From Eledone cirrhosa (lineage: Eukaryota): a stretch of DNA of 64,000 nt. The position numbers and the translations under genes were made by a program. Where the stretch lies: contig OZ024741.1 in the NCBI GenBank assembly GCA_964016885.1, forward strand, positions 40,982,001-41,046,000, read 5' to 3'. Numbering within the stretch: the stretch's first letter is position 1; each line of letters opens with the position of its first letter. Below are positions 1,753-62,369 of the stretch, in pieces. The notes beneath the pieces were generated by a model. It saw only the letters and a program-made list of their open reading frames with translations. It did no database searches and was not told the origin of the DNA.

Positions 1753-3706
1753 TATATAATTCAGTAACACAATTAAAAGTAAGACAAAAATAACAAAAAC
1801 AAAATAATAAGGTGAGCGTAAACTCTATAGCTACCTCAGCTACACAGCATATCTCAGTTGCACCCCTTGGACAGGATGGTGAAGATATATAACAATCTGT
1901 AATATTTGCTGCATCAGCTATCGCATCCCATGGGGCTCTCTCTGCCAAGCATGATGGCATCAACTCTATACTCTAAGCTGAATAACATATCTTAGCTACA
2001 CCCTGTCGACAAAATGGTAAAAATGTTTCCATGGACAACAGTCAACAATATAAGCTACATCAGCCATTCTTCTTCATAAGGTGCGACACCATCGTTCTGA
2101 TTTGGTGGGAGAAGATGGTAGTCCAGAGATAAAACAAACAGGAGACCACATTTGGTCCATCAATGCCTGGTATTTGGTCCATGTATTTTACCTATAACTT
2201 TTTAAAATATTGTGCGAGAGATTTAGTCTTGATTAGTAGACTTAATCTTGTGTTGTAGACTTTGTCTAGAGCAATAGATTTTATATTGGGTGACAAAGTT
2301 AATCATGGATGACAGACATAATCTTGAGTGGTAGAATTAACTTAGAATATCCTATACCACACGAACCCACATTAGTAAGATGTTGTTGAAAAGCACAAAT
2401 CAGAACTATGACTGTATCAAAGTAAAAGTTAAATTTGTTACTTAAAATTACTGCAAATTTTCACAATGATCTGTCAACCAATAAAGATACTATGAACATT
2501 TGAATTCAATTTGTTTTCAGACATTTTCTCCTAAATCATTACAGTTAGTTAATCTTGAATGGCAAACTTAATTTATTTTGCCTGGTAGATTTAACCCATC
2601 ACTTGGTTTAACACTGGCTCTTGGGTGGCTTGAATGGAGTCCATTCTATTACAAGCATTTGTGCCAGGACACCAGTTTGAGGAGACCTTCCTCTCTGTCT
2701 CTCACCATTCTTCATGTCCCTGAAAAGGGTCAATGGCACTACTGTTTCTTCCATGATTAAACAGTAAAAAGAAAAGAAACACATTCCTTTCAATATGAGG
2801 TTGTTTGATAGGTGAGTTAATTAGAAATAACAAACATTAGGTCAGTAGACAAAAGCTAGCTTTCATCTCATCAACATAGTCTTTGTATTACATTGTTGTT
2901 TTTTTTCTATATTACTCAAAAGATAAAACAATTAAAAGGAAGTAGTTCATTAGTTTTCTGTGTTAATTAGCTTGAAGTGATCATTAGTTTTAAAACAATG
3001 TTTTATCATTGACTCGATTGAAAAGACAACATTTCAAAGTTATTATTATTTTTTTTCAGTAGCAGATAGTTTTAAACAAAGAATAGAATTTTTTTTGCCA
3101 AATGAAGAAGTATTCAGTTTCAAACACTATTTTAATCTAACCAAGAAGAGGCTGATATTGATCCTCATCCCTGGGCTTGATGGAATTAACCAGGGGTCAA
3201 CTGAACTTTTAAGTCAAAATATAACTATGTAACAGACGAAAATACTTAAAGTAATTCAATAAAATACAACTTGCTTATCTCTCTAGTTGCCAACCTGGTC
3301 TAATAAAACTCCCCATTTTAAAGGTTTCCAATTCAAATTAATATCTTCCAACATAAGTTTAGTAAAACCCTCAACATTCTTCATTAATTAATTAAAATAG
3401 CATGTATTTCATTAGAAATGTGGTCATGAAAGGTTTATACAAGTCACTAATTTATATATAATTAGGCTTTTTGTTTATTTATCTTATAAACTTACATATT
3501 TATATAATTACATATCTGGGGTAGAAAGACTTCCTGCAGGAGTCAATGTCTAAAAGGTTTCGTTCATATAGATCTTCAATAAAAACTGCTAACTTAGTTG
3601 AAATAGACTTTATTACCATATTTTTAGTGAGACAGTGCCAATGAGGTTCAAATAATTGTGAAAATTAAAAAAAAAAAAAAAATTGTAAGATTCTGGAAAG
3701 ATTCCT

Positions 3707-3747
3707 CCGAGCTGAGGATCCGCATAAGGTGAAACAATTGTTCTCGG
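3707..3747 (+). ncRNA. Minimal type I hammerhead ribozyme
   Basis: Stem I CCGAG/CUCGG, CUGAGGA 3712-18, short stem II (U.U, CC/GG), GAAA 3731-34, palindromic stem III ACAAUUGU, GUU cleavage triplet. Confidence 0.75.
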
Positions 3748-3836
3748 TATGGTGAACTGTTGTGTTACTACTTCTACCAAACTCGTCCCCTGGACTGAGT
3801 GTCTACTACTACGGGTATTACCTTCCAGTGTTCCAC

Positions 3837-4854: not shown

Positions 4855-5590
4855 GATAAATTTGTGTGGACAGGTGTTAAAAAACCTGATTGCCTATTTA
4901 TTATATGGGGCTTACTTTTAATAATTTCTATGACTTCTGTCATGCATAAATCACAATTATTTGCTAAAGATTCTCACTTGTATGGGTGTGCTGTTTGTAG
5001 GTGTGGACCAAGACAATGAATGCTATATATTATCCTGTTTTAGTTGCCATATTAGTTTAGATAATGCTGTGCTACCATGCTAGTCTATTCTATTAAATAG
5101 GTGGCACTGGTAGTACCACCTTTCCTTAATGCTATTCACTTTTGGCCCTATGTATTTACATGACCTATTGCTAGTGGTAACTCAGCACTCATAGACAATG
5201 TTTTTCTCTAAGCATCTATTCTGCATGGGGCAGTTTACTGGGTTTCTACAGTTGCAATCCTGGTTAGACATATGCGTTGTGTCTGAATCTTATCTATTAG
5301 GACAGCTAAAAACTCTATCTAGGTATATGGTATTGTGTCTATTGCTAAGGGCCCCATGGGTTGCAGTGTTATCTATTTGTCTGTGCTCGTTGAGACTATA
5401 TTTCTTTTCTAATCTATCATGGTTTATTTTGGCTATGTTTTGTTGAGTGTGATAGCTTTGTAGTATACATATTAAACATTCAGTTGTATCTATGAGATTT
5501 TATCAAGTGTTTTGAAGAAAATGCAACCAATGTTGGTTTTGAGCCCAGCTGAGTATGGTGGGTTGTACCATATGCTATGTAAACTGGCTT
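4855..5590 (-). pseudogene. Decayed Penelope-like (Naiad-type) ORF 3' part: linker, CxCx5Cx5C knuckle, GIY-YIG endonuclease
   Basis: Manual minus-strand translation: IWYNPPYSAGLKTNIG...CNCRNPVNCPMQNRCLEKNIVYEC*V...KYIG...STALSKLIWQLK...CDLCMTEVIEI...CPHK; stops and frameshifts present. Confidence 0.8.
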
Positions 5591-6433: not shown

Positions 6434-6589
6434 ATATATATATATGTATATGAATGTATATATATATATGTGTATATATATCTATATGTATGTATATATA
6501 TATGTATATATATATGTATATATATATATATAATGTGTATGTATATATATATATATATATGTGTGTGTGTATGTATATATATATATATA

Positions 6590-7412
6590 CAAATATATTA
6601 CACAAAGAGAAGTGTGTTACACTGTGAGGTGTGTGTAAAGAATTATTACAAGTGAGTTTTACTGTTACTGTATAGAGAACAATATCTACAGGTTAGCAAT
6701 TAAATAGAAAAAAACTAAGTCAGAATCAAATCTCTGAAGTAGAGTTTTAAATTACCAACCTTATAACCATAAGTTTGCTGATACGAATCTCGTTCGTTTC
6801 ACCACAGACATGTGCATTGTAACAGCCCACAGGATCCTCACTGTGAACTGCGGAATACTCTTAATTCCGATCCTTGTATACTTAACGAGCTCCAAATTGC
6901 TGAGCTAATAAATTTGAATGGTTGGGCATTTTCCCCAATCCATGAGAGCCGTTATTTGATGCAAATAACACGTGATTTCACCCTACTCTGGGCAGTGTGT
7001 ATATTAGCTTTCTCTCTATCCATGAGGTTAGATGTGTCGTGAACAGTTTCCACATTTGCTGACTGAGGATCCTGTGAACTGTTATACTGCACATTTCTGT
7101 GGTGAAACGAAGCGAGATTCGTATCAGCAAACTTATAGTTATGAGGTTGGTAATTTAAAACTCTAATTCAGAGATTTGATTCTGACTTAGTTTTATTCTA
7201 TTTAATTGCTAACCTGTAGATATTGTTCTCTATACAGTAACGGTACAACTCACTTGTAATAATTCTTTACACACATCTCACTGTGTAACACACTTCTCTT
7301 TGTGTAATATATTTGCATTTGAGCTCGGAAAAAAATTCTCTGCTCTTCTTTGAGCTAATATTATTATTATTACTGTGAACTGCGGAATACTCTTAATTCT
7401 GATCCTTGTATA
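6590..7412 (+). mobile_element. Non-coding PLE-derived element with inverted 5' arm, hammerhead and terminal direct repeat
   Basis: 6590-6840 is the reverse complement of 7064-7315; 6840-6880 repeats at 7372-7412 (532 bp period); TA tracts on both sides. Confidence 0.85.
7055..7131 (+). ncRNA. Type I hammerhead ribozyme
   Basis: Stem I UUUGCUGA/UCAGCAAA (8 bp), CUGAGGA 7063-69, GAAA 7104-07, stem III CGAA/UUCG, GUA 7121-23. Confidence 0.85.
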
Positions 7413-7483: not shown

Positions 7484-10400
7484 AAGTAACGTTCTAATAT
7501 TTTTCTCGATTCTTCTCTCCATTCGAATCCATTCATTCAATCACTATTCTATGTCCTAATTTCACACTATATCATATTTTCACCATTCTATATCATATTT
7601 TTTTTTTTTTTCTCTAAAAATCATATTTTCCCTATCACCGCATTTTCTCTATCTAATTTTCTTAAACAAAACAAATCTTGTATTTTCGTTTATTGTTAAA
7701 TTATGCCCAAAATACGGCGATCTTATCTTAAACCTTACATTCTCGCTAACAACACACCACCATTATTACGTGGACCAATCATAAGTCAGAGGCCCATACT
7801 ATCGCCTAACTGGTTGCTTTTCGATATGATGGATGGACTACGGAATTCTGGAGAGTTGAAGAGAGAAAAATCTGGACGCTCAGCGACAATGCCAAAGATA
7901 AAGACAAATTCACCTCGTGGACGAGAATGCAAGCACTCCGCCTTGTTTCGGCCCAGGATGGCTAACATAACCCCCCCCCCCCGCTCCCACCCTCCAAACG
8001 CAATCCAAAACTTCAGAGTTGGTACCATGAATGTAGGCACCTTAAAGGGTCGCTCTAACGAGGTTGTAGAAATGCTTGAACGTAAGGAGGTCGATGTTTG
8101 TTGTATTCAAGAGACCAGGTGGAGGGGAGGGTTGGCTAGATTCATCGTGGGTAAAGAACGATGCTATAAGCTTTTCTGGGTGGGAAATGACAATGGGTTG
8201 GGTGGGGTAGGAATCATGGTAGCAGAAAAGTGGGCAGATAAGATAATAGACGTAAATAGAGTGAACGACAGAATAATTAAAATAAGACTTGTCCTCAATA
8301 AAACTACGGTGACAGTAATATCTGCGTACGCACCACAATCCGGACTGCCCGGTGCTATAAAAGACAGATTCTACGAGACACTGATGCTCGCTACCTCCCA
8401 AATAACCGACAGTGACTATATAGTTATTGCAGGTGACCTAAATGGTCACATTGGACAGCATTGTGACGGCTATGACGGAATCCATGGAGGCTATGGGTTC
8501 GGTACTAGAAATGAGGAAGGCTCCAGAATCCTGGAAATCTGCGACGCAAATAACTTAACTATCTGTAACACTAACTTCAAAAAACGAGACAATCACTTGA
8601 TCACCTATAGATCGGGGGAACACACAAGCCAGGTAGATTATATCCTTACCAGAAGACGTGACAGAGTGTCTGTTGTTAACACTAAATCCCTCCCCCATGA
8701 AGAATTCACCTCCCAACATAGAGTGATAATTAGCGACCTCATAGTCAGGACGAGACGTACTAGACAGCGGAAGAGGACTATCCTCAGGAGAAAAATATGG
8801 AAGCTAAAGGACCCCACAGCCAGAAATAAATTTCAAAGCATATTACTTGACGCTTTTGACAGTAAGGAAGAGCAATTAGAGTCGTATAATATAGAGGAAC
8901 AGTGGGAATTCCTGAGAGCAAACCTGCTGACGGCGGCAGACGAAGTCTGTGGCTGGAGCAGGCCTGTAGGTAGGAGGAGAGTAACATGGTGGTGGAACAG
9001 TAAGGTGAAGGAGTCAATTAAGGCCAAAAAGCAGGCTTGGAAAGCATGGCGGGATGGGGGAAGTAGAGAAGACTATCAGGTGGCCAGGAGGGAAGCTAGG
9101 AGACAAGTGTACTTTGCAAGAAGGGAAGCAGAGGAAAGAAAGTTCAAGCATGTTCTACAACGTGAGGACCAAAAACGTGAGGTGTTCAGGATTGCCAGGC
9201 AATGTGTCAAGGAAAACCGTGATATTGTCGGGGAGAAGTGTGTGCTTAACGATGATGGCATACTTGCCATCACCGACGCTGATAAGAAGGTAGCTTGGAA
9301 GTGTCACTACGAAAGGCTTCTAAATGAGGAGAACAAATGGGAGAAAGACAGTCTCCCCCACATCGACCCAATAGAGGGACCAGCAGTGTTAGTCCAGGGT
9401 AGTACAATAAGCAAGGCAATCAAAGATATGAAGACGGGTAAGGCGGCTGGTCCTTCGGAAATAGTTGCTGAGATGCTGAAGGCATCTGGTTCGGTGGGAC
9501 ACACCATAGTCACCCGGATAGTTAACCAAGTCGTACAGAATGGGGTTGTTCCGAATGACTGGCGTAGCAGCATCATCGTTAACTGCTATAAGGGAAAAGG
9601 AGATGCCCTAGATAGGAGTAACTATAGAGGCATTAAATTAATCGACCAGGTCATGAAGGTCACGGAAAAAGTAATAGCGCAACTAATCAGAGAGAGAATT
9701 GATCTAGATGAAATGCAGTTCGGATTTGTGTCAGGCAAAAGTACCACAGACGCTCTTTTCATTGTACGACAACTACAGGAGAAGTACCTAGCTAAAAGTA
9801 AACCCCTATACTTAGCTTTCGTCGACTTGGAGAAAGCCTTCGACAGAGTCCCCCGTTCCATTATCTGGTGGTCTCTTAGAAAAGTAGGTGTTGACGAATG
9901 GCTTGTGAGAGCTATACAAGCCATGTATAAAGAAACAGTCAGTAAGGTTAGAATTAACAACGAATATAGTGAAGAGTTTAGCGTAAAAGTTGGTGTCCAT
10001 CAGGGCTCTGTTCTTAGCCCCCTACTATTTATTATTGCCCTTCAGGCTATAACAGAGGAGTTCAAGACCGGCTGCCCATGGGAACTCCTATACGCAGATG
10101 ATCTAACGCTCATAGCTGAATCAATGACCGAACTAGAGAAGAAATTCCAAACATGGAAGCACGGCCTAGAATCAAAAGGCCTTAAAATTAACCTGGCTAA
10201 GACTAAAGTACTAGTTTGTAGGAAAGAAAATATGGCGGCAGTCCCATCTGGGAAATGGCCATGCTCAGTGTGTAGGAAAGGCGTAGGTAGAAACTCCATT
10301 TTATGTCCCAAATGCAAAATATGGGTGCATAAAAGATGTAGTGGGATCACAGGTAAGCTAACTAAGAACATAGATTTTACATGTGGCCGGTGCTCTGGTG

Positions 10401-11558
10401 CAATAAGTAGCAGCAAGTGCCCACAAAATACTAGCTCCTTCAACTGCGCAGAGGGTTCTATAGAAATAGTGGACAGCTTCCGTTACCTGGGTGACAAAAT
10501 CAGCAGTGGGGGAGGGTGCTCTGAAAGTACAGTAGCTAGAGTCAGAACTGGATGGAAAAAGTTCAGAGAGCTTATACCACTATTAGCCGCTAGAGGGTTC
10601 TCCCTAAAAATGAAAGGCAGGTTATACGATGCCTGCATACGAACAGCAATGCTGCATGGCAGTGAGACCTGGGCATTGTGTGCAGAGGATATACGCAGAC
10701 TAGAGAGGAACGAAGCTTGCATGCTCCGCTGGATGTGCAATAGTAATATACGTGAACGGCAAAGCATAAACGAACTAAGGAAAAAATTAGAAATAAGAGG
10801 GATCAGATGTTGTTTACTCGAGAGAAGGCTACGTTGGTACGGTCACGTGATGCGCATGAAAGACGACAGCTGTATAACAAAGTGCAGGGCAATAAAGATA
10901 GACGGTAGCCACGGAGTAGGCAGACCCAGAAAAACATGGCACGACCTGATAAATTCTGACCTCACACGCTTACACCTCTCCAAGACAATGTCACTGGACC
11001 GAGACCTTTGGCGGTACTCAGTAATAGAGAAGACCCGCCTTACCTAAATACAAAGTAAAAACCTACTACAGTCAGTAGGCATCTCTATCAAACCCCCCCC
11101 CCCCCCCCGTCCCACCACCTCCACCCCATCCACACCGCCCCTTTCAATGTACAGTTATGTTGGTCCCACAACATCCAGGCCGAAACAAATGAGATCGTGT
11201 AGGTGTCACGACAAAAAACACACAGTCCATGCTGTAAATGTGGCCGTGTAGGCAACACGGTAAAAACCTCCCAGCCCCACACTGTAAATGTGGTTGGTGT
11301 TAGGAAGGGCATCCAGCTGTAGAAAACCCGCCAGACAGTCCACGCTGTAATGTGGCCGTGTAGGCAACACGGTAAAAACCTCCCAGACCCACACTGTAAA
11401 TGTGGTTGGTGTTAGGAAGGGCATCCAACTGTAGAAAACCCGCCAGACAGTCCTATGCGAGCAAGACAACCACTCTTGCCTCAAGTGGGAAAACCCCCGT
11501 CCAAACCCATGCAAGCGTGGAACACGGACGCTAAACCTGATGATGATGATGATGATGA
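7484..11558 (+). mobile_element. Apparently full-length RTE-clade LINE (subfamily 1)
   Basis: Single long ORF, 3' UTR with terminal hairpin and (GAT)n tail, (TA)n on both sides; 5' boundary approximate. Confidence 0.85.
7703..11047 (+). CDS. RTE ORF: APE endonuclease + reverse transcriptase with inserted PHD-type zinc finger
   Basis: 1114 aa uninterrupted; APE motifs TMNVGTL, IQETRW, GDLNGH, VDYIL; RT motifs FVDLEKAFD, GVHQGSVLSP, YADD, FRYLG; RTE-type C-terminus RLRWYGHV...GRPRKTW. True start codon uncertain. Confidence 0.95.
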   Translation: MPKIRRSYLKPYILANNTPPLLRGPIISQRPILSPNWLLFDMMDGLRNSGELKREKSGRSATMPKIKTNSPRGRECKHSALFRPRMANITPPPRSHPPNAIQNFRVGTMNVGTLKGRSNEVVEMLERKEVDVCCIQETRWRGGLARFIVGKERCYKLFWVGNDNGLGGVGIMVAEKWADKIIDVNRVNDRIIKIRLVLNKTTVTVISAYAPQSGLPGAIKDRFYETLMLATSQITDSDYIVIAGDLNGHIGQHCDGYDGIHGGYGFGTRNEEGSRILEICDANNLTICNTNFKKRDNHLITYRSGEHTSQVDYILTRRRDRVSVVNTKSLPHEEFTSQHRVIISDLIVRTRRTRQRKRTILRRKIWKLKDPTARNKFQSILLDAFDSKEEQLESYNIEEQWEFLRANLLTAADEVCGWSRPVGRRRVTWWWNSKVKESIKAKKQAWKAWRDGGSREDYQVARREARRQVYFARREAEERKFKHVLQREDQKREVFRIARQCVKENRDIVGEKCVLNDDGILAITDADKKVAWKCHYERLLNEENKWEKDSLPHIDPIEGPAVLVQGSTISKAIKDMKTGKAAGPSEIVAEMLKASGSVGHTIVTRIVNQVVQNGVVPNDWRSSIIVNCYKGKGDALDRSNYRGIKLIDQVMKVTEKVIAQLIRERIDLDEMQFGFVSGKSTTDALFIVRQLQEKYLAKSKPLYLAFVDLEKAFDRVPRSIIWWSLRKVGVDEWLVRAIQAMYKETVSKVRINNEYSEEFSVKVGVHQGSVLSPLLFIIALQAITEEFKTGCPWELLYADDLTLIAESMTELEKKFQTWKHGLESKGLKINLAKTKVLVCRKENMAAVPSGKWPCSVCRKGVGRNSILCPKCKIWVHKRCSGITGKLTKNIDFTCGRCSGAISSSKCPQNTSSFNCAEGSIEIVDSFRYLGDKISSGGGCSESTVARVRTGWKKFRELIPLLAARGFSLKMKGRLYDACIRTAMLHGSETWALCAEDIRRLERNEACMLRWMCNSNIRERQSINELRKKLEIRGIRCCLLERRLRWYGHVMRMKDDSCITKCRAIKIDGSHGVGRPRKTWHDLINSDLTRLHLSKTMSLDRDLWRYSVIEKTRLT

Positions 11559-19137: not shown

Positions 19138-19516
19138 ATATATATATATATATATATTTGTTTTGCAAGATTTCTTATAAACAGCCATCCAGTTATTGAA
19201 CTAATTGGAAATTTATAATAAATTGAAGTGAAAACCAACAGGTACATGTGTTTTTATTGGCAAAGTATAACTATATATATATATTATAATTTTATATATT
19301 ATCTAATTTTTACATTTGATACTTTACATTTTGCTCGTTGTTCTCGATAAGAGGCCATACTAAGAGTGAGAAATTAAATTTTGTTTCATTCTTTTCCACT
19401 ATATATATATCGTATTTTTACTCCAACAATTTGTTGAGTGCTTTATATCAGTTATAAAAATATTTGCTTGTTGTATCCCAACAATTTAAATAGAACTTCT
19501 ACATATATATATATAT

Positions 19517-23311: not shown

Positions 23312-23942
23312 TCAGAAAAAAGTAAACTTTTGTTTATGCAGACAGTGATTGAAGAAATTGAAGCAGTTCTTTTTAGAATATAGTTGTGTAAGTATATTCC
23401 ATTTTTTGGCCGTACATAAACAACAACTTTTTAAACCATTAATATAGAGAGTGGATATTTCCAGGATTCTCCATGTTATGGAGAAACCCGTGACACTTTC
23501 TTTGTTTCCCCATGTGGCTTTCAAGCTTTGTAGTATACCTTTTGTCTGGGTGTCTAAAGGTAGTTTTGAGGTGAAAGAAACAGCTCTCCAACATACCTTC
23601 ATATGACCAGGTTTCTGCTTAGTGGTTCTGGATGGTGGAAGCCACTTTTGGTTTATATATCATTGCTGGAGTGTTGAAATCTCAGTCAATGGGGCATGAT
23701 TCTGGCTTTCTGTATAAGATTCTGGAAGGTGGAGGGTTCTTGTATTTATTTATGATGCGAGATCTTATGCTTTTAATACATGAGTAGCTGGTTTTCATTG
23801 TATGATAGTTAAATATCTGATGGCATTTCTGACCTACAGACAAGTGTGAACCTAAAAGTGTTAGGAATATTTTATTCACATTAGTTTTAACATTCAGCAA
23901 GCAGGGTGTTAAGAACCATAAATTTGGTATTTTAACAATCAC
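23312..23942 (-). pseudogene. Decayed Penelope-like (Naiad-type) ORF 3' part with GIY-YIG domain
   Basis: ORF-track peptides LWFLTPCLLNVKTNVNKIFL..HQIFNYHTMKTSYSC..CPID and ITWRIL..SCCLCTAKKWNI..CLHKQKF align with the motifs in 4855-5590. Confidence 0.8.
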
Positions 23943-29747: not shown

Positions 29748-30119
29748 TATTATGCAAAATATGAACAAATGAAAGATATTCACATAATCAAAATATATGA
29801 TTTGATATATGACATACCGCTACGGTCTTGATTATTCAATTCCAGTATTGCCAATACTGGAATTGTATAATCAAGACCGTAGCGGTATGTCATATATCAA
29901 ATCATATATTTTATCTGATGAAGACGTACTGAAAAAAAACAACACACTACCTTTGAAATGTATATAATAAAGCATATATTTTGATTATGTGAATATCTTT
30001 CATTTGTTAATATTTTGAATAATATTAAAAACTCCAGGAAATTTTTTTTGTTGAGTGCTTTTAATCTATTGTAAAATTGTATTCATTGAGTAATCAACGA
30101 ACCATATTAATCTTTGGTT
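29748..30119 (+). mobile_element. PLE-derived palindromic insertion with hammerhead (29905-29976)
   Basis: ~100 bp arms meet at 29851; right arm has CUGAUGA 29915-21, GAAA 29955-58, AUA triplet; same ribozyme family as 22534. Confidence 0.8.
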
Positions 30120-30731: not shown

Positions 30732-31400
30732 AATATATATAGTCCCTCCTCATAGCAGTGCCATCCAGTTCCACACTGTAATTGTGGGTGCAGGTCCCAA
30801 AGTTTCCACTGTGAGAAGGCTTCAGCACGGCCAGCTGGCCTGTCCCTCCTCATAATGGTGCCATTCAGTCCCACACTGTAAATGGCCAGACTTTTCTCTC
30901 AATGTAGACAACCTGTCTGACCCAAGCAAGCATGGAAAAATGGACATAAAATGGTGATGATGATGATGATGATGATAGACATATAAATACATCTCTATAA
31001 GAAATATATCTATTTATATAAATATAAAGTAGTCATGTAGGTGTCATGACAAGAAGTGCCCACTGTAAAGTCCACACTGTAAAGTGATCACAAAGCTGTC
31101 ACAACAAAAAAGCACCCAGTCCACACTGTACAGTGGTCATGTAGGTGTCAATACACAAAGCACCTGGTCCACACTGTAAAAGAGGTTCGCGTTAGGAAGG
31201 GCATCCAGTTGTAGAAACCAAGCCAAAACCAGTTCTGTATGAGCAAGACAGGGTCACCTGACCTAGGCATTGCCCAAAACAAGATAACTCGTCTAACCCA
31301 TGCTAGCGTCGAAAAATGGACATAAAATGGTGATAATCATGATGATGATCATGATGACAAACACACACACATACATATATGTGAGTGTTTATATATGTAT

Positions 31401-32603
31401 AAAATAAACTGGTGTGAGTGGAGAGGGTATATGTTTAAAATAAACTAGTGTGAGGGGGGTATGTGTTTAAAATAAACTAATGTGAGGGGGGTTTATGTTT
31501 AAAATAAACTGGTGAGAGGGGGGTATGTGTTTAAAATAAACTAATGTGAGAGGGGTTTATGTTTAAAATAAACTGGTGTGAGGGGGGTATGTGTTTAAAA
31601 TAAACTAATGTGAGAGGGGGTTTATGTTTAAAATAAACTGGTGTGAGGGGGGTATGTGTTTAAAATAAACTAATGTGAGGGGGATTTATGTTTAAAATAA
31701 ACTAGTGTGAGGGGGTATGTGTTTAAAATAAACTAATGTGAGAGGGGGTTTATGTTTAAAATAAACTGGTGTGAGGGGGGTATGTGTTTAAAATAAACTA
31801 ATGTGAGGGGGGTTTATGTTTAAAATAAACTAGTGTGAGGGGGGTTTATGTTTAAAATAAACTAGTGTGAGGGGGCTATGTGTTTAAAATAAACTAACAC
31901 GATATTTAGGTTTATGTTTAAAATAAACTGGTGTGAGGGGGGTTTATGTTTAAAATAAGCTGGTGTGAGAGGGGTATGTGTTTAAAATAAACTAATGTGA
32001 GAGAGGGTTTATGTTTAAAATAAACTGGTGTGAGGGGGGTATGTGTTTAAAATAAACTAATGTGAGAGGAGGTTTATGTTTAAAATAAACTGGTGTGAGG
32101 GGGTATGTGTTTAAAATAAACTAATGTGAGAGGGGTTTATGTTTAAAATAAACTGGTGTGAGGGTGGTATGTGTTTAAAATAAACTAATGTGAGAGGGGG
32201 TTTATGTTTAAAATAAACTGGTGTGAGGGGGGTATGTGTTTAAAATAAACTAACGCGAGGAGGGTTTATGTTTAAAATAAACTAGTGTGAGGGGGGTTTA
32301 TGTTTAAAATAAACTGGTGTGAGGGGGGTATGTGTTTAAAATAAACTAATGTGAGAGGGGATTTATGTTTAAAAGAAACTGGTGTGAGGGTGGTATGTGT
32401 TTAAAATAAACTAATATGAGAGGGGGTTTATGTTTAAAATAAACTGGTGTGAGGGGGGTATGTGTTTAAAATAAACTAATGTGAGAGGGGGTTTATGTTT
32501 AAAATAAACTGGTGTGAGGGGGTATGTGTTTAAAATAAATTAATGTGAGGGGGTTTATGTTTAAAATAAACTGGTTTGAGGACGGAGGGTATATGTTTAA
32601 AAG
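31401..32603. repeat. Minisatellite, ~30-31 bp monomers mostly alternating as ~61 bp dimers
   Basis: tttaaaataaactggtgtgagggggg-tatgtg alternates with tttaaaataaactaatgtgagaggggg-tttatg; ~39 monomers. Confidence 0.95.
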
Positions 32604-33382
32604 CAATCCCATAGTATACCAAGAAACCAACCAATCAGAAGATATTGAAAAGAAATAGGAAAGATAATCTTCTCCAATGTCACATGATTCATTTCTATCT
32701 TTCGCATTCCCCAGCAGACCCACTAATGTTTGCTTGAGCTACATTAACTAGTCACAATTAATTATAATTATATCATCTCAAGAAATTATTAATTAATAAT
32801 TAGTTTTGCCTTCATACACTCCAGCCAAGCAAGCAGGCACATATTGTATTTGTTGTAACTGAATCGTATAGACTTATTTTACAAATGAACTCGAAAAGCT
32901 CATTTCACATTCAATATCACGATATTTAGGTATTTGTGTGTGTGTTTTTTTCTAAGTGTGTGTGTTTTTCTCAGTGTATGTGTGTATATGTATGTTTCTG
33001 TCAGTGTGTCTGTGTACATCATGTGTTTGTGTGTGTGTGTGCGTATATATGTATGTATGTGTGTATGTGTGTATGTATGTGTTTCTTTGTGTGTATGTGT
33101 ACATCATGTGTATGTGTGTGTGTGTGTATGTATGTAGGTGTTTCTCTGTGTATGTGTGTGTATGTATGTGTGTATATGTATTTCTGTCAGTGTGTCTGCA
33201 TTTGTGTTAATGTTTGTGTGTGTGTGCCTGTGTGTCTGTGTGCAGTGTGTATTTATGTGTGTGTGTGTGTCTGTGTATATTTGCATCCTGTGTATGTGTG
33301 CATCCTGTGTATCTCTGTGTGTGTGTATGCATCCTGTGTATGTGTGCATCCTGTGTATCTCTGTGTGTGTATATGTGCATTA

Positions 33383-33570: not shown

Positions 33571-34120
33571 GTGTATTTGTGCATGCGCCTGTGTATGTGT
33601 GCATCCTGAGTGTGTGTGTGTGTGTGTGTGCATGTGCCTGTGTGTGTGTGTGTGTGTGTGTGTGTTTCTGTGTGTGTGTGTGTGTGTTTCTGTACCTTCC
33701 CTCACACACATACACCAACACACACAAACAGATGAAATGAAGCACTGCTGTATATTGTAACACAATGGAACTAAGGCAGTACAACTTCCGTAGTTGCACA
33801 ACTGAACATTCCTAGACATCCACCAACACATTTTTAATCTCTACGTCTCCCCCCCCCCCCCTTTCTCTCTCTCTCTCTCACACACACACTCTCTCTCTCT
33901 CTCTCGCTCTCTCTCTCTCTCACACACACACTCTCTTTCTCTCTATCTCACACACACACATTCTTTCTCTCACACACAACCTCTCTTTCTCTCTTCCACA
34001 CACACTCTTTCTCTCTCTCTCACACACACACACCCTCTCTTTCTCTCTTCCACACCCTCTCTTTCTCTCACACACACACACACATTCTCTCTCTCACACA
34101 CACTCTCTCTTCCACACCCT

Positions 34121-34592
34121 CTCTTTCTCTCTGTCTCTCACACACCCTCTCTCTGTCTTTCACACACCCTCTCTCTGTCTCTCACACACCCTCTCTCTGT
34201 CTTTCACACACCCTCTCTCTGTCTCTCACACACCCCCTCCCTGTCTCTCACACACCCTCTCTCTGTCTTTCACACACCCTCTCTGTCTCTCACACACCCT
34301 CTCTCTGTCTCTCACACACCCTCTCTCCGTCTCTCACACACCCCCTCTGTCTCTCACACACCCTCTCTCTGTCTTTCACACACCCTCTCTCTGTCTCTCA
34401 CACACCTCCTCTCTGTCTCTCACACACCCTCTCTGTCTCTCACACACCCTCTGTCTCTCACATACCCCCTCTCTGTCTCTCACATACCCCCTCTCTATCT
34501 CTCACACACCCTCTCTCTGTCTCTCACGCACCCTATCTCTGTCTCTCACCCCCCCCTCTCTGTCTCTCACACAGCCTCTCTCTGTCTCTCAC
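34121..34592. repeat. ~22 bp CT/CA minisatellite
   Basis: Repeats of ctctctctgtctctcacacacc. Confidence 0.9.
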
Positions 34593-35087
34593 ATACACAC
34601 ATATTAATCATGACTAGAAAGGAGAAAACAATATTGTTAATGATTGGCAGAGTGGATAGAGTGTCACACTAAATACCTTGTGGTATTTGCTGTGAGTTCA
34701 AATCCTGCTGAGATCAACATACCCTTTCAATTCAGGTTCAGGGCCAATCAATAGAGTACCTGTCCAAGGCACACCCGGTTCTGAGTTTGAATATTTCATT
34801 TGCTTTGATCAACTTTGGCTTTCATTCTTTCAGAGCAAGGTAGAGGAAGGGGGGGGGGGGGTAAATAAATGAAGAACCAATCCAGGTGGGGGTGGGGGAA
34901 TTATTAGAATGTTGAACACGAAGCATTGTAGCATCTCTTTCGGCTCCTTGTGTTCTGAGTCCGCCAACAGCAACACTGATACTGAGCTGCATCAGCCCTT
35001 GCCTTTATCTTGAAAAACATACTCTTGGGTCTTGAATAATAAACTTTTGGCATTTTGAACTGATTAAAGTTTTTGCTTATTTTTTAA

Positions 35088-38247: not shown

Positions 38248-38393
38248 ACGAAGGAAATGTGGTAAGGAACCAGGTGGACCATAACACACCAAAGTACTCA
38301 ATACTTAGGGTAGTAGAGTGGGTAATAGGAACGTCCAGAATTAGCCGTCGAAACAGCTTGAGCTCAGCCGTCGGGGTCCTACTTGTTCCTATA
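38248..38393 (-). mobile_element. Short PLE-type tail insertion with 8 bp inverted arm
   Basis: Minus-strand hairpin ACUC-UACU..AGUA-UU-GAGU (38296-38319); ataggaac/gttcctat inverted pair; TA flanks. Confidence 0.55.
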
Positions 38394-40545: not shown

Positions 40546-40680
40546 AGTTTATCCCGGGTGCAATCGGGGGTAACCACAGTAAGTAAGGTACTCAATACAA
40601 AGTAGAGTATAAATATTTAATATAGAAAAGCTTCTACAGGACTAGAACTATTTCATTCGAGAGAAATCATCAGGAACCGC
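40545..40680 (-). mobile_element. PLE pLTR 3' end with hammerhead (40630-40678) and bulged hairpin (40589-40608)
   Basis: UUC-CUGAUGA-U-UUC-UCUC-GAA-U-GAAA-UAG..CUG-UA-GAA; ACUC-UAC-UUU-GUA-UU-GAGU; TA flanks. Confidence 0.75.
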
Positions 40681-56766: not shown

Positions 56767-58507
56767 ATCATCATCATCACCGTTTTACGTCCGTTCTTCC
56801 ACGCTAGCATGGGTTAGACGGGTTGTCCTGTTGTGGGCAGTGTCTGGTCGGCTGACCATGCCTTGCTCATACAGGAACTGATCTGGCTTGATTTCTACAG
56901 CTGGATGCCCTTCCTAACACCAACCTCATTTACAGTGAGTGCTGGGTGCTTTTTCGTGGCGCCTACACGTCCACTTTACAGTGTGGGCTGGGTGCTTTTT
57001 TGCCGTGGCACCTCCACGACCACCTTGCGGTGGGGGGGGGGAGGGGGGGGGGCATATTGTTTATATGCTTCAGCATGTACCCATGGGAGGTCGGGTACCC
57101 TGTATTACTGCGTGACGCCAGAAGTCACGGTCGTGTGTCATTGACTTTGAGAGGTGTAGTTGGGTAAGGTCGGCTTTTATCACCTCATCCCAAGTCATCT
57201 TGGGTCTCCCCACTCCGCGGTTTCCATCAACTTCTAGTGCTCTGCACCTTTTTATGCAGCTGTCATCCTTCATACGCATCACATGTCCATACCAGCGTAA
57301 CCGCCTCTCCTGCACGCAGCATTTGATTCCTCTTATGCTCAGTCTCTCTCTCAATTCATTTAAGCTTTGTCGTTCACGTATATTACTGTTACACATCCAT
57401 CGGAGCATGCAGGCTTCGTTTCTCTCTAATCTACGTAAGTCTTCCACCTTCAGCGCCCAGGTCTCACTACCATGCAACATCGCTGTTCGGATACACGCAT
57501 CATACAGTCTGCCTTTCATTCTGAGGGAGAAGCCTTTTGCAGCTAGCAGTGGTAGTAGTTCCCTAAACTTCTTCCATACCGTTCTTACCCTAGTTATTGT
57601 ACTTTCTGAGCACCCACCTCCGTTGCTAATTCGGTCACCTAGGTAGCAGAAGCTGTCTACTGTTTCTACAGGGCCCTCCCAGAGATTGGTGGTACTTGTT
57701 TCCTGTGGCTGTTTGCTTGCTGTTTCAGCACAGCTGCTGCATGTGAATCCTACATTCTTAATTAAGCTTCCTGAGATCCCGCTACATCTCTTGTGTACCC
57801 ATTGTTTGCATTTGGGGCAGAGAATGGAGTTCCTACCTACACCTTTCCTACATACTGAGCAAGGCCATTTCCCTGAGGGGATCTGGGTTCTGTTTTCTCG
57901 TCTACTTATAAGGACCTTAGTCTTTGTCATGTTGACTTTGAGGCCCTTTCTCTCTAGTCCCTGCTTCCAGGTTTGGAATTTATTCTCTAGTTCTACCATA
58001 GATTCAGCTATGAGTGCGAGGTCATCAGCATACAGGAGTTCCCATGGGCATCCGGTCTTAAACTCCTCCGTTATTGCCTGCAGGACTATGATGAACAGGA
58101 GAGGGCTAAGAACAGAGCCCTGGTGGACCCCAACCTGTACGCTAAATTCCTCGCTATACTCATTGCCAATCCTAACTTTGCTGACTGCTCCCCTATACAT
58201 GGCTTGTACCGCTTTCACAAGCCATTCATCTACTCCTAGTTTTCTAAGAGCCCACCAGATTACTGCACGTGGAACTCTGTCAAAGGCTTTCTCAAGGTCG
58301 ACAAATGCCAAGTAGAGTGGCTTACTTTTAGCTAGGTACTTTTCCTGTAATTGCCTCACAAGGAAGAGTGCATCAGTGGTGCCTTTCCCTGGAACAAACC
58401 CAAATTGCATCTCGTCTATATTCACCCGGTCCCTAATCAGCTGTGCTATAACTCTTTCTGTTACTTTCATGACCTGGTCCATCAACTTTATACCTCTATA
58501 GTTTCCT
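56767..58507 (-). mobile_element. 5'-truncated RTE subfamily 2 with open RT-PHD frame
   Basis: ORF 57070-58563; the real part starts at GNYRGIKL, the N-terminal YI residues are microsatellite. Confidence 0.95.
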
Positions 58508-58529
58508 ATATATATATATATATACATAC

Positions 58530-58560
<31 letters not shown>

Positions 58561-58569
58561 CATATATAC

Positions 58570-58649
<80 letters not shown>

Positions 58650-58696
58650 AAGGGAAAGCGAAGTAGCTTCAGATGTTCAAGTCCTTTAATAATAAT

Positions 58697-58770
58697 GCTG
58701 TGATATATATTTCAATGACGACACTGGCCACACTGTTCTGTGTGCGAGTGTCGTGACATCATCAGACAGC
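58697..58770 (-). ncRNA. Type I hammerhead (inverted-arm copy)
   Basis: Reverse complement of 60119-60192 with intact core. Confidence 0.78.
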
Positions 58771-60118
58771 TTATTACATAATAAGGTTATGTTTCCGAGG
58801 CAATCCAAATTGAATCGACATGGGAACGGATGAAGTGCGTGCTTTTGGGTTTTTCATCCGTTCCCCTGTGAGTACCAATTCACCCCCACCGGTCTGTGCA
58901 GGCACATGTCCGAAGAAAGTTGACCATTATTCGATATTTACTCCGTCACTCCTATGTGGAAAAAGTACGTTGAGTGCTTGAATTGAATTGCATCAATGTT
59001 TACCCTAATAATTTAGCTCCAATTAGTTGAGCGCTCTATGATGTAACCGATATGGTGGAGAAAAGAGGAACCAACCATGAGCTACCCCGGAAATTCCCTC
59101 TATCATGGGGATGGAAAACCCTGACACTGGACGGACATAATAGTAACTTTCGGCAGGATAAATATGCGGAAACAAAAAAATAAGATAAACCCCTATTTTC
59201 CTGCACCAAATCGCATTTGAACAGAAGCCCCCTCAATTCAATCTATACATGGACAGATGGACAATCATATAAATCATTTTGCATATATGTCCTCTGTGTT
59301 TTTGCATTTATTCACTATTAGTTCTGTTCTTTTCTTTTGTGTACTTTATGTCTGTTTTTCTTTGGTTTTGTTCCATGTGATGGAAATTATGACTGTGTAC
59401 CAGATTGACTAATGCCTTGAATACTGTAGCTTGCCCTCCGTTCTAATGTACGGCACTGTCGTTCAATATGTGGATAGAGTAACTGTGACACTAGAACCCC
59501 TCTCAGAACTTCTTACTTAAACACCACTCTCCATATTATTTACTCACTTCAATGTATATATTTTTTTACTCACCTCAATCCGAATTCTCACTTGAAAATT
59601 TTTTTAATGTTTTAATTTCTAATTGTTAATTTTTTAATTGTTTAATTTATAATTTCTGATATTTGATTTATCATTTTAATTTTTATTTCCAGCTCTCACT
59701 CTTAACTTCCAATGTAAAATCAGGATACCTAGAATTAAGTTTATTTCCCTTATGAGTTGATGGTCAGTCATACTGTCAACGCTTGGTGAGAGGTAGTATT
59801 ATGACCTGTAAAAACTAATACTCTCCCATCCCCTCTGGCTTTCGGCTGACTGCCACAGTCGTGATGGGTAACAGTAAACTGTGGTACAGGCATAGGTGGG
59901 CCATTGTTTGGCTGAGAGGGTGAACTGACTAAGCGAATTTCGTTGAAATCTGCGGTAGCTAATGGTCAACTTACCTCGGACATGCGCCTGCGCAGACCGG
60001 TGGGGGTGAATTGGTACTCACAGAGGAACGGATGAAAAACCCAAAAGCACGCACTTCATCCGTTCCCATGTCGATTCAATTTGGATTGCCTCGGAAACAT
60101 AACCTTATTATGTAACAA

Positions 60119-60192
60119 GCTGTCTGATGATGTCACGACACTCGCACACAGAACAGTGTGGCCAGTGTCGCCATTGAAATATATATCACAGC
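60119..60192 (+). ncRNA. Type I hammerhead ribozyme
   Basis: Stem I GCUGU/ACAGC, CUGAUGA 60124-30, long stem II (CGACACU/AGUGUCG), GAAA 60176-79, palindromic AUAUAUAU, AUC triplet. Confidence 0.8.
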
Positions 60193-60482
60193 ATTATTAT
60201 TAAAGGACTTGAACATCTGAAGCTACTTCGCTTTTCCTTATTCGATATTTACTCCGTCACTCCTATGTGGAAAAAGTACGTTGAGTGCTTGAATTGAATT
60301 ACATCAATGTTTACCCTAATATATATATATATATATATATACATACACACATATATATATATAAATAAATATACATATATACACACATACATATATATAT
60401 ATATACATATATACACATATACATATATATATTATACATACACATATATACACATATACACATATATATTATACATACATAT

Positions 60483-60796: not shown

Positions 60797-61308
60797 GTGG
60801 CAACCGGTCACGTTGTGGCTCAATGAAGAATTAATAAATTAAATAAGCAGAGCAATATATCATAAATCATGTCCTTAGAATTATTAGATGAAATATATAC
60901 CATTTCCTCTCCCAATTAGCATAATTAACCATATAAAAAAATCAATTAGACCAGGCTATAAGAATAAAGGCTCCTAAGAAGAAATTTTCGACAAATAACC
61001 GAAAGCGGCCTCTTCGCGGTGACCCCAATAGAGTATTTACCCAACAATTCAACAGCATGTAGAACTGACTAAATAAACCATCAACCATACACAATTAGGT
61101 GTAAATTTAAACTTAGAAGAAACGTGTACATACCGTAAGTATATCTCTACCATGGTTTCGTCTGTATTTTTAGATATCCTATTGTTAGGATTTATCCGGA
61201 GTAACAGACTCATCAGTCTAATTGTTTTTTATATGGTTAATTATGCTAATTGGGAGAGGAAATGGTATATATTTTATCTAATAATTCTAAGGACATGATT
61301 TATGATAT
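60797..61308 (-). mobile_element. PLE-derived fold-back element with hammerhead core (61148-61216) lacking its 5' stem I strand
   Basis: Arms 60857-60951 / 61216-61308; CUGAUGA-GUCUGU..ACAGAC-GAAA-CCAUGG-UA. Confidence 0.8.
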
Positions 61309-62063: not shown

Positions 62064-62369
62064 GAAGTAATTCCGTCGGAAAAGTCCAGGAAAAAAGAGT
62101 GCTCTATGTAGGTAACAGAGCTTAATAGTTATGTAATAAACAACATAAGGTAATTATTCCATTTACCAGTGGTTTCTTAAAAGCAAAAAATTTTGCTTTC
62201 AATCCTCAAAATGAAAAAAATCCTGGTCTGTTTATTGAATTTGGATTTCAAAAACAAAAATACAATCTATATGAAAGTGAGGCTGGAGAAAGACGAAGGA
62301 AACGAAAAATAAAATAAAACCACACATGCAAAAACACAAACACACGCACACACACACAAAAGCATACAT

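Follow-up and report, generated by a model that had tools for sequence, protein, structure and literature searches.

Penelope-like elements (PLEs) of the Hydra clade, which belongs to the C-terminal EN+ PLEs, carry three marks in their proteins, namely RWK, DKT and CxCX5C (Craig et al. 2021, PMC8557442, section 11), and the parts of that paper compared here also describe hammerheads, (TA)n targets, partial tandems, an inverted 5'-truncated copy and a one-sided tail, which is ascribed to endonuclease-mediated resolution. For Poseidon PAc of Anolis, it was reported that both strands are cleaved and extended in vitro, that internal starts occur at two sites bounding the tail and that a dimer is predicted (Frangieh et al. 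2024, PMC11167929); the preliminary description of our locus had stated such initiation at two internal sites of an Anolis PLE correctly. In L1 twin priming (the model of Ostertag and Kazazian, as given in PMC12016303), both target ends prime cDNA on one RNA, which leads to an inversion. Finally, non-LTR retrozymes (Li et al. 2026, bioRxiv 10.64898/2026.07.22.740005) are described as tandem units without coding capacity that stem from PLE ends and contain a type I hammerhead. In the literature compared here, the PLE tail and the inverted ends are an open question.

Here, we analysed a window of 64,000 nucleotides, i.e., the whole stretch of Eledone cirrhosa DNA under study, which contains ORF-less, hammerhead-bearing PLE units of two families, A and B, set in (TA)n. 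Both units share one layout at their (TA)n target, in which the body is accompanied by an inverted arm and by a terminal direct repeat (Table 1). The insertion anatomy of EN+ PLEs was found (partial tandem, inverted 5'-truncated copy, one-sided tail, hammerhead and (TA)n target), and so were non-coding tandem units with a type I hammerhead motif in each, a respect in which families A, B and G fit the non-LTR retrozymes. Neither an ORF nor a tblastn match was found for units A and B, which thus lack the RT-EN ORF of a Hydra-clade PLE, and no protein partner could be tied to either family. Judged by motif, hammerhead and target, A and B are likely non-autonomous users of Hydra proteins. A first look at the genome gave 2792 candidates for family A and 1137 for family B, of which 40 each were scored; tandem copies of the units (loci L012, L029, L030 and L052) and hammerhead cores were also found. 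The window further holds LINE ORFs unrelated to the PLE units (7700-11047 on the plus and 57070-58668 on the minus strand, encoding an APE endonuclease and an RT domain that is followed by a PHD finger), decayed Hydra-type ORF fragments on the minus strand (5005-5573 and 23754-23921; tblastn E 6e-17 and 5e-5) and minisatellites at 31391-32618 (period ~32 nt) and 33797-34600 (~22 nt).

Table 1. Positions of PLE features in the window.
Feature	Position	Strand	Remark
Family A site-2 arm: 1311-nt ORF-less unit and 84-nt terminal repeat	58927..60321	+	
Family A terminal direct repeat	58927-59010 = 60238-60321		
Family A hairpin 2, GCUC-C..G-UU-GAGC (DNA GCTC-CAATTAG-TT-GAGC)	59016..59032	+	5-7 nt beyond site 2
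Family A site 2 (tail end) in read-through copy	59008..59010	+	equals 60319-60321
Family A hairpin 1, ACUC-CGU..ACG-UU-GAGU	60251..60286	+	second copy 58940-58975
Family A site 1 (short end class)	60241..60243 (genome copy ends 60241-60247)	+	7-9 nt before hairpin 1
Family A tail, 75-78 nt, then (TA)n	60244..60321	+	
Family A site-1 arm, inverted copy of 59960-60243	58646..58929	-	
Family A type I hammerhead motif	60117..60192 (core 60124-60179)	+	mirror copy 58765-58710 on -; pairing by eye
Family B hairpin 2, GCTC-CAAATTG-CT-GAGC	6889..6905	+	
Family B hairpin 1	7323..7355	+	
Family B site-2 arm: ORF-less unit and 41-nt terminal repeat; hammerhead core 7063-7107	6840..7412	+	
Family B terminal direct repeat	6840-6880 = 7372-7412		
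Family B site-1 arm, inverted copy of 7064-7318	6587..6840	-	
Family C hairpin 1	3781..3800	+	family tied to Hydra-type ORF elsewhere; long-loop hairpin 2 in L296-L324
Family D hairpin 1	40590..40608	-	family D site 2 without motif
Family E hairpin 1	30031..30056	+	read-through beyond tail not found
Family G hairpin 1	60818..60853	-	hairpin 2 in genome copies
Family M hairpin 1	38296..38319	-	
Family O hairpin 1, UA bulge	62101..62121	-	

The motif considered here is a bulged stem of the form NCUC-N..N'-U(U/C/A)-GAGN', which stands after each of two sharp end sites, ~6-8 nt downstream. Both copies of hairpin 2 reported in the preliminary description are present where it placed them, and the element ends that it mapped 5-7 nt (to 59008-59010) and at least 8 nt (to 6880) upstream of the motif were upheld by the terminal repeats and by the ends of genome copies. 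The inner stem CAA-A-UUG that it had drawn in family B would need a 1-nt loop, which limits inner pairing to the first pair or the first two. In this hairpin, the CU bulge (6900-6901) is private to the window copy, being seen in 1/31 read-through copies, with UU in 29 and one degraded. In the genome, family A copies end at 60241-60247 or 60319-60321 and family B copies at ~7312-7320 or 7410-7412; the family B tail measures ~90-98 nt from site 1, and the 41-nt terminal repeat is not the tail. Of 18 site-2 ends in family A, 12 lie 5-8 nt before the motif and 4 lie at 7 nt, while 15/22 in family B lie at 8-12 nt, where TA microhomology, which is found at most junctions, blurs the exact point. Six of the 14 site-1 ends of family A are sharp at 7 nt and free of microhomology. 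The modal offset interval included 6-8 nt at 16 of the 23 sites examined, to which B1 adds one, with poor anchors at B1, C2, K and site 1 of G2, only 1-2 ends in N and Q, and a different hairpin at D2. Altogether, 468 of 495 microsatellite-flanked ends fell inside the two 18-nt site windows, site 2 of families E, F, M and N being defined by the tail end itself.

In each of the five families C to G in the window, the motif follows the short end. A second motif, predicted for these five, was seen in 6/7 families with visible read-through and ends (A, B, C, G, H and I; in family I the outer pair is mismatched in the single copy seen and only 3 ends were mapped), the exception being D; families J and G2, which have motif 2 and too few mapped ends, were excluded from this count. 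The motif spacing in these six families (76, 98, 68, 104, 172 and 115 nt) falls within the range of tail lengths that the ambiguous junctions permit, or at its limit, so the proposed equality of tail length and hairpin spacing holds; it restates the fixed offset and is no separate evidence. Hairpin 2 lies beyond the tail in genome copies of family G, carries an insert of ~85 nt in its loop in family C and accompanies hairpin 1 in the coding families H and I elsewhere in the genome. It is retained in the ORF-less families, and motif 2 was never found within a terminal arm. Tail queries for C, D, E and F returned almost only terminal copies. A pattern of tail end plus CTC gave read-through at 7 loci for family D, none for family C (where it was reached via L087) and in 0/7 matches for family E; family F, like E, yielded none. 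In a sister family of G (L225:4258-4447), the outer pair of hairpin 2 is A-U (U-A in G) and a (TA)n run has grown inside the tail.

A loose form of the motif has 14 occurrences in the window when both strands are counted, nine at PLE-type ends and five elsewhere, and its chance level is about 1 per 25 kb. A further copy lies between TA runs at 19420-19439 (+), like family K of L216. With a model built from 17 metagenome elements, which was kept sequence-only because MAFFT left the 5' strands of the stems unaligned, the best match in the window was 58976-59041 (E 1.2e-4), and it covers hairpin 2 of family A. Rfam covariance models, run on 6 loci at E up to 1, left the hairpins unmatched and hit only microsatellite or tRNA-like stretches, below the gathering score. 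Folding energy was unremarkable (z from -1.7 to +0.5) and gave no support for the hairpins; pairing predicted in local context was weak (0.1-0.2) in 4/9 folded stems and reached a stem probability of 0.95-0.97 in hairpin 2 of family C. Such low predicted stability fits a protein-bound motif and does not demonstrate one. The first inner pair, on which no pairing was imposed, was Watson-Crick in 42/48 motifs (permutation mean 23.5, maximum 36, kinship ignored). It was C-G or U-A in the metagenome set, with A-U and G-C additionally in the genome; by position, C-G prevailed in hairpins 2 (22/26) and U-A in hairpins 1 (16/22). G-C, A-U and U-A were all seen as outer pairs. The loop length of 6 to ~90 nt, together with the inner pairing, points to a folded strand and not to a double-stranded site. 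Inner stems contained 14 G.U and 6 A.C pairs, so that the choice between RNA and a DNA strand is not settled by them.

This weak bias suits a reading of the motif in DNA, in which the GIY-YIG endonuclease would cut the cDNA or a double-stranded intermediate ~7 nt from the motif, and the ends would mark resolution instead of initiation. The origin of the tail proposed by Craig et al. agrees with it, CTC..GAG can be seen as an inverted half-site pair, and recognition by the D. virilis endonuclease depended on the tail (as cited in PMC11167929). However, so variable a spacer with inner pairing is unfit for a duplex site (a single-stranded DNA hairpin would be compatible), terminal arms never contain motif 2, and the start sites of PAc map to the tail bounds in vitro (PMC11167929). 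We therefore regard the DNA reading as unlikely. Our inference is that the motif works at the RNA level, on the reverse transcriptase.

The arms of head-to-head insertions obey a simple rule. Of 128 such insertions in 10 families, 127 combine a site-1 arm with a site-2 arm, in agreement with the earlier proposal that the two arms of one insertion use different sites. Independent site choice would give at most half 1+2 pairs. Families H, M and N, which were not fetched by the tail query, showed the same pairing in 28/28 insertions, and their unpaired ends use both sites (31 at site 1, 22 at site 2). Exceptions were seen at L010, where the minus-strand arm reads through hairpin 2 and ends ~90 nt later, and at L141:1134-1633, with the tail on both arms. 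Cutting of the RNA ~7 nt before each hairpin, followed by ordinary 3'-end TPRT on two processed RNAs, could account for the two end classes, and read ends in Anolis RNA-seq do coincide with start sites (PMC11167929); yet two independently chosen RNAs would again yield no more than half 1+2 pairs, and PAc starts internally on uncut RNA according to the same source, which makes this explanation very improbable. In many short insertions of families C and D, both arms stop at the hammerhead 5' edge with the uncut cleavage site included, which is in line with the use of unprocessed RNA by PAc (PMC11167929). Among short symmetric insertions (L093 and L098-L118 in D, L062-L125 in C), both arms often stop at this edge or in stem II, and these stops suggest an RNA 5' end or a stall.

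The two arms also differ in length without a fixed direction. The site-1 arm was longer in 15 insertions (confirmed by eye in L007, L011, L087 and L238) and the site-2 arm in 17, while 79 were symmetric (a class including a few misbinned tandem copies), 5 unclear and 11 without a called repeat. Thus, the fixed assignment of hairpin 1 to the short inverted arm, made in the preliminary description, had to be abandoned. Since either arm can be longer, the second arm is not copied from the first by fold-back. A cDNA that starts at site 2, folds back and is then copied on itself as far as site 1, or one that primes itself on an antisense template (PMC3846280), would suit the 79/116 classified insertions that are near-symmetric, many of them joined at the hammerhead 5' edge, as well as the minor variants common to both arms; however, a copy cannot exceed its template, and the insertions with a longer site-1 arm contradict fold-back in the asymmetric cases. 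As a general explanation it is extremely improbable, and it may still have shaped some junctions. Minor variants common to both arms of one insertion numbered 121, against 30 expected from arms of different insertions, and were absent in families G and N. They fit a single RNA as the source of both arms, although gene conversion could also have produced them.

The coding relatives place the motif in the Hydra clade. The 794-aa protein of family H (P0001) has RWK near its N terminus, DKG changed to DKT and a CxCX5C linker; by eye, its C terminus has the YIG motif and lacks the second His. RWK was found in 24 of the 25 listed relatives' proteins, the one miss starting downstream of it, DKT in 22 (DKS in the remaining 3) and CxCX5C in 21, with misses mostly cut by contig ends. 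From these sequence marks, the coding relatives are assigned to Hydra-clade PLEs. Stop-free frames of 790-870 aa are present in numerous Hydra-type copies at 91-94% identity, which form a young, abundant family. In family H, several copies have a hammerhead-like region (L251, minus strand, 3640-3760) in which CCGAAGA replaces the usual CUGANGA core and stem II is long.

An initial metagenome scan gave no matches; the scan reported here found 80 loci, of which 34 had at least 150 nt before the ORF start and 46 were left out of the twin count. Within 200 nt before the ORF, two motifs were present in 17/29 clusters and at least one in 26/29, compared with 0.08 and 2.5 for shuffles, 0 and 0 for the ORF and 0 and 5 for antisense; the clusters are related, so these counts overstate independence, and several of the 12/29 with fewer than two motifs are truncated. 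The motifs are 57-74 nt apart, and a few contigs show ends immediately upstream of motif 1 (L328, L334 and L380) or of motif 2 (L354 and L347). Hairpin 2 sits 25-60 nt before the start codon. By eye, a clear motif is visible in 3/6 published Hydra consensus sequences (PMC8557442 File S7), the others being ambiguous. Both motifs, whose pairing the preliminary description proposed to test in consensus sequences, are present in Hydra-1_Ajap, and the first one in Hydra-2_Amil and Hydra-2_Ajap. Compared at the sequence level, the twin motif is conserved across distant Hydra-clade elements.

The signal has clear borders. Site 2 of family D is sharp and paired in 26/26 insertions without the motif, a GCAC-loop-GUGC stem being in its place; at L289-L292 of this family, the GCAC-loop-GUGC stem lies 30-40 nt before a Hydra-type ORF start, and several copies are short internally deleted tandem units. 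A non-Hydra PLE of the genome (L215:6360-8258; L033, L048), whose protein has a CX4CxxC linker and two His in the endonuclease and which by our reading would be Neptune-like, has two end classes ~60 nt apart and 1+2 pairing in 9/10 insertions, with the motif absent from site 1. In the PAc stretch of Fig. S1 (PMC11167929), the NCUC..GAGN' stem was absent by eye. The signal is thus clade-specific as far as the PAc stretch and the non-Hydra site 1 indicate, and the earlier idea that the twin signal explains the PLE tail in general fails for these two and for site 2 of family D. The two-end rule itself may be general across PLEs. Family D without motif 2, hairpin 2 near the start codon and TA microhomology at most junctions would also suit ends set by AU-rich stretches pairing with (TA)n, with the hairpins serving another role (RNA capture, or translation of the nearby ORF) and adjacent only incidentally. 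This seems quite improbable to us, since the sharp family A site-1 ends at 7 nt need no microhomology, (ATT)n within the B tail and other AU-rich stretches were hardly used (2 other ends vs 43), the 1+2 rule is left without a reason, and ORF-less families keep hairpin 2.

We consider it fairly probable that each cut end of the target primes a cDNA at a stem of its own, the RNA hairpins being the binding sites by which the reverse transcriptase is positioned. The endonuclease would cut both strands of (TA)n, and both stems of one RNA would be held in a single ribonucleoprotein, probably dimeric, that has two active sites. Each 3' OH would then anneal to the AU-rich stretch immediately 5' of a stem and be extended towards the RNA 5' end, and joining of the two cDNAs at their ends would produce the inverted arrangement. 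The arm begun at stem 2 would be longer at its outer end by the stem spacing, i.e., by the tail; loss or extreme shortness of one cDNA could leave only one arm, tailed or tailless, hence the 'optional' tail. In vitro, the start site of PAc was the same for both strands (PMC11167929), which counts against this model. More tentatively, and with somewhat less than an even chance in our estimate, the process may be a programmed twin priming, in which the subunits of a dimeric telomerase-related RT, bound to two RNA stems of the same template, would each begin cDNA on one end of a double-strand break, at a ruler distance from the stem; the tail and the inverted pLTR of all endonuclease-bearing PLEs would be its footprint, the RNA signals would be clade-specific, and the 17-nt Hydra stem would be portable as a start signal. 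If right, positioning by the two stems names a cis signal for a telomerase-related retroelement, explains the mobilisation of non-coding retrozyme-type units and makes twin priming the normal route for a whole clade. The stem at a fixed distance and the near-absolute one-site-per-arm rule make the proposal directly testable.

The elements, the tail, the inverted arm, the hammerhead, internal initiation and twin priming are each already known singly. No description of the paired stem or of the one-site-per-arm rule was found in a search of openly readable article text. Our coding relatives resemble the Hydra clade in RWK, DKT, CxCX5C, hammerhead and (TA)n targets; the tails in the compared parts of PMC8557442 measure 30-40 bp vs 65-175 here, and those parts do not describe the twin hairpin or the one-site-per-arm rule. 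Non-LTR retrozymes are proposed to use rolling-circle copying, the available text (10.64898/2026.07.22.740005) names no cis mobilisation signal, and unit A, at 1311 nt, exceeds the stated range of 51-972 bp. PAc likewise has two internal start sites bounding the tail; however, it starts in an AC-rich stem-loop, whereas Hydra-type start sites are embedded in AU-rich sequence upstream of the stem, and the compared part of PMC11167929 names no signal 3' of each start site. L1 twin priming is a minority event (~20%) with a variable internal second start (PMC12016303), whereas in the present elements the two starts are both internal and sit at fixed, marked positions, and the arms would overlap by design.
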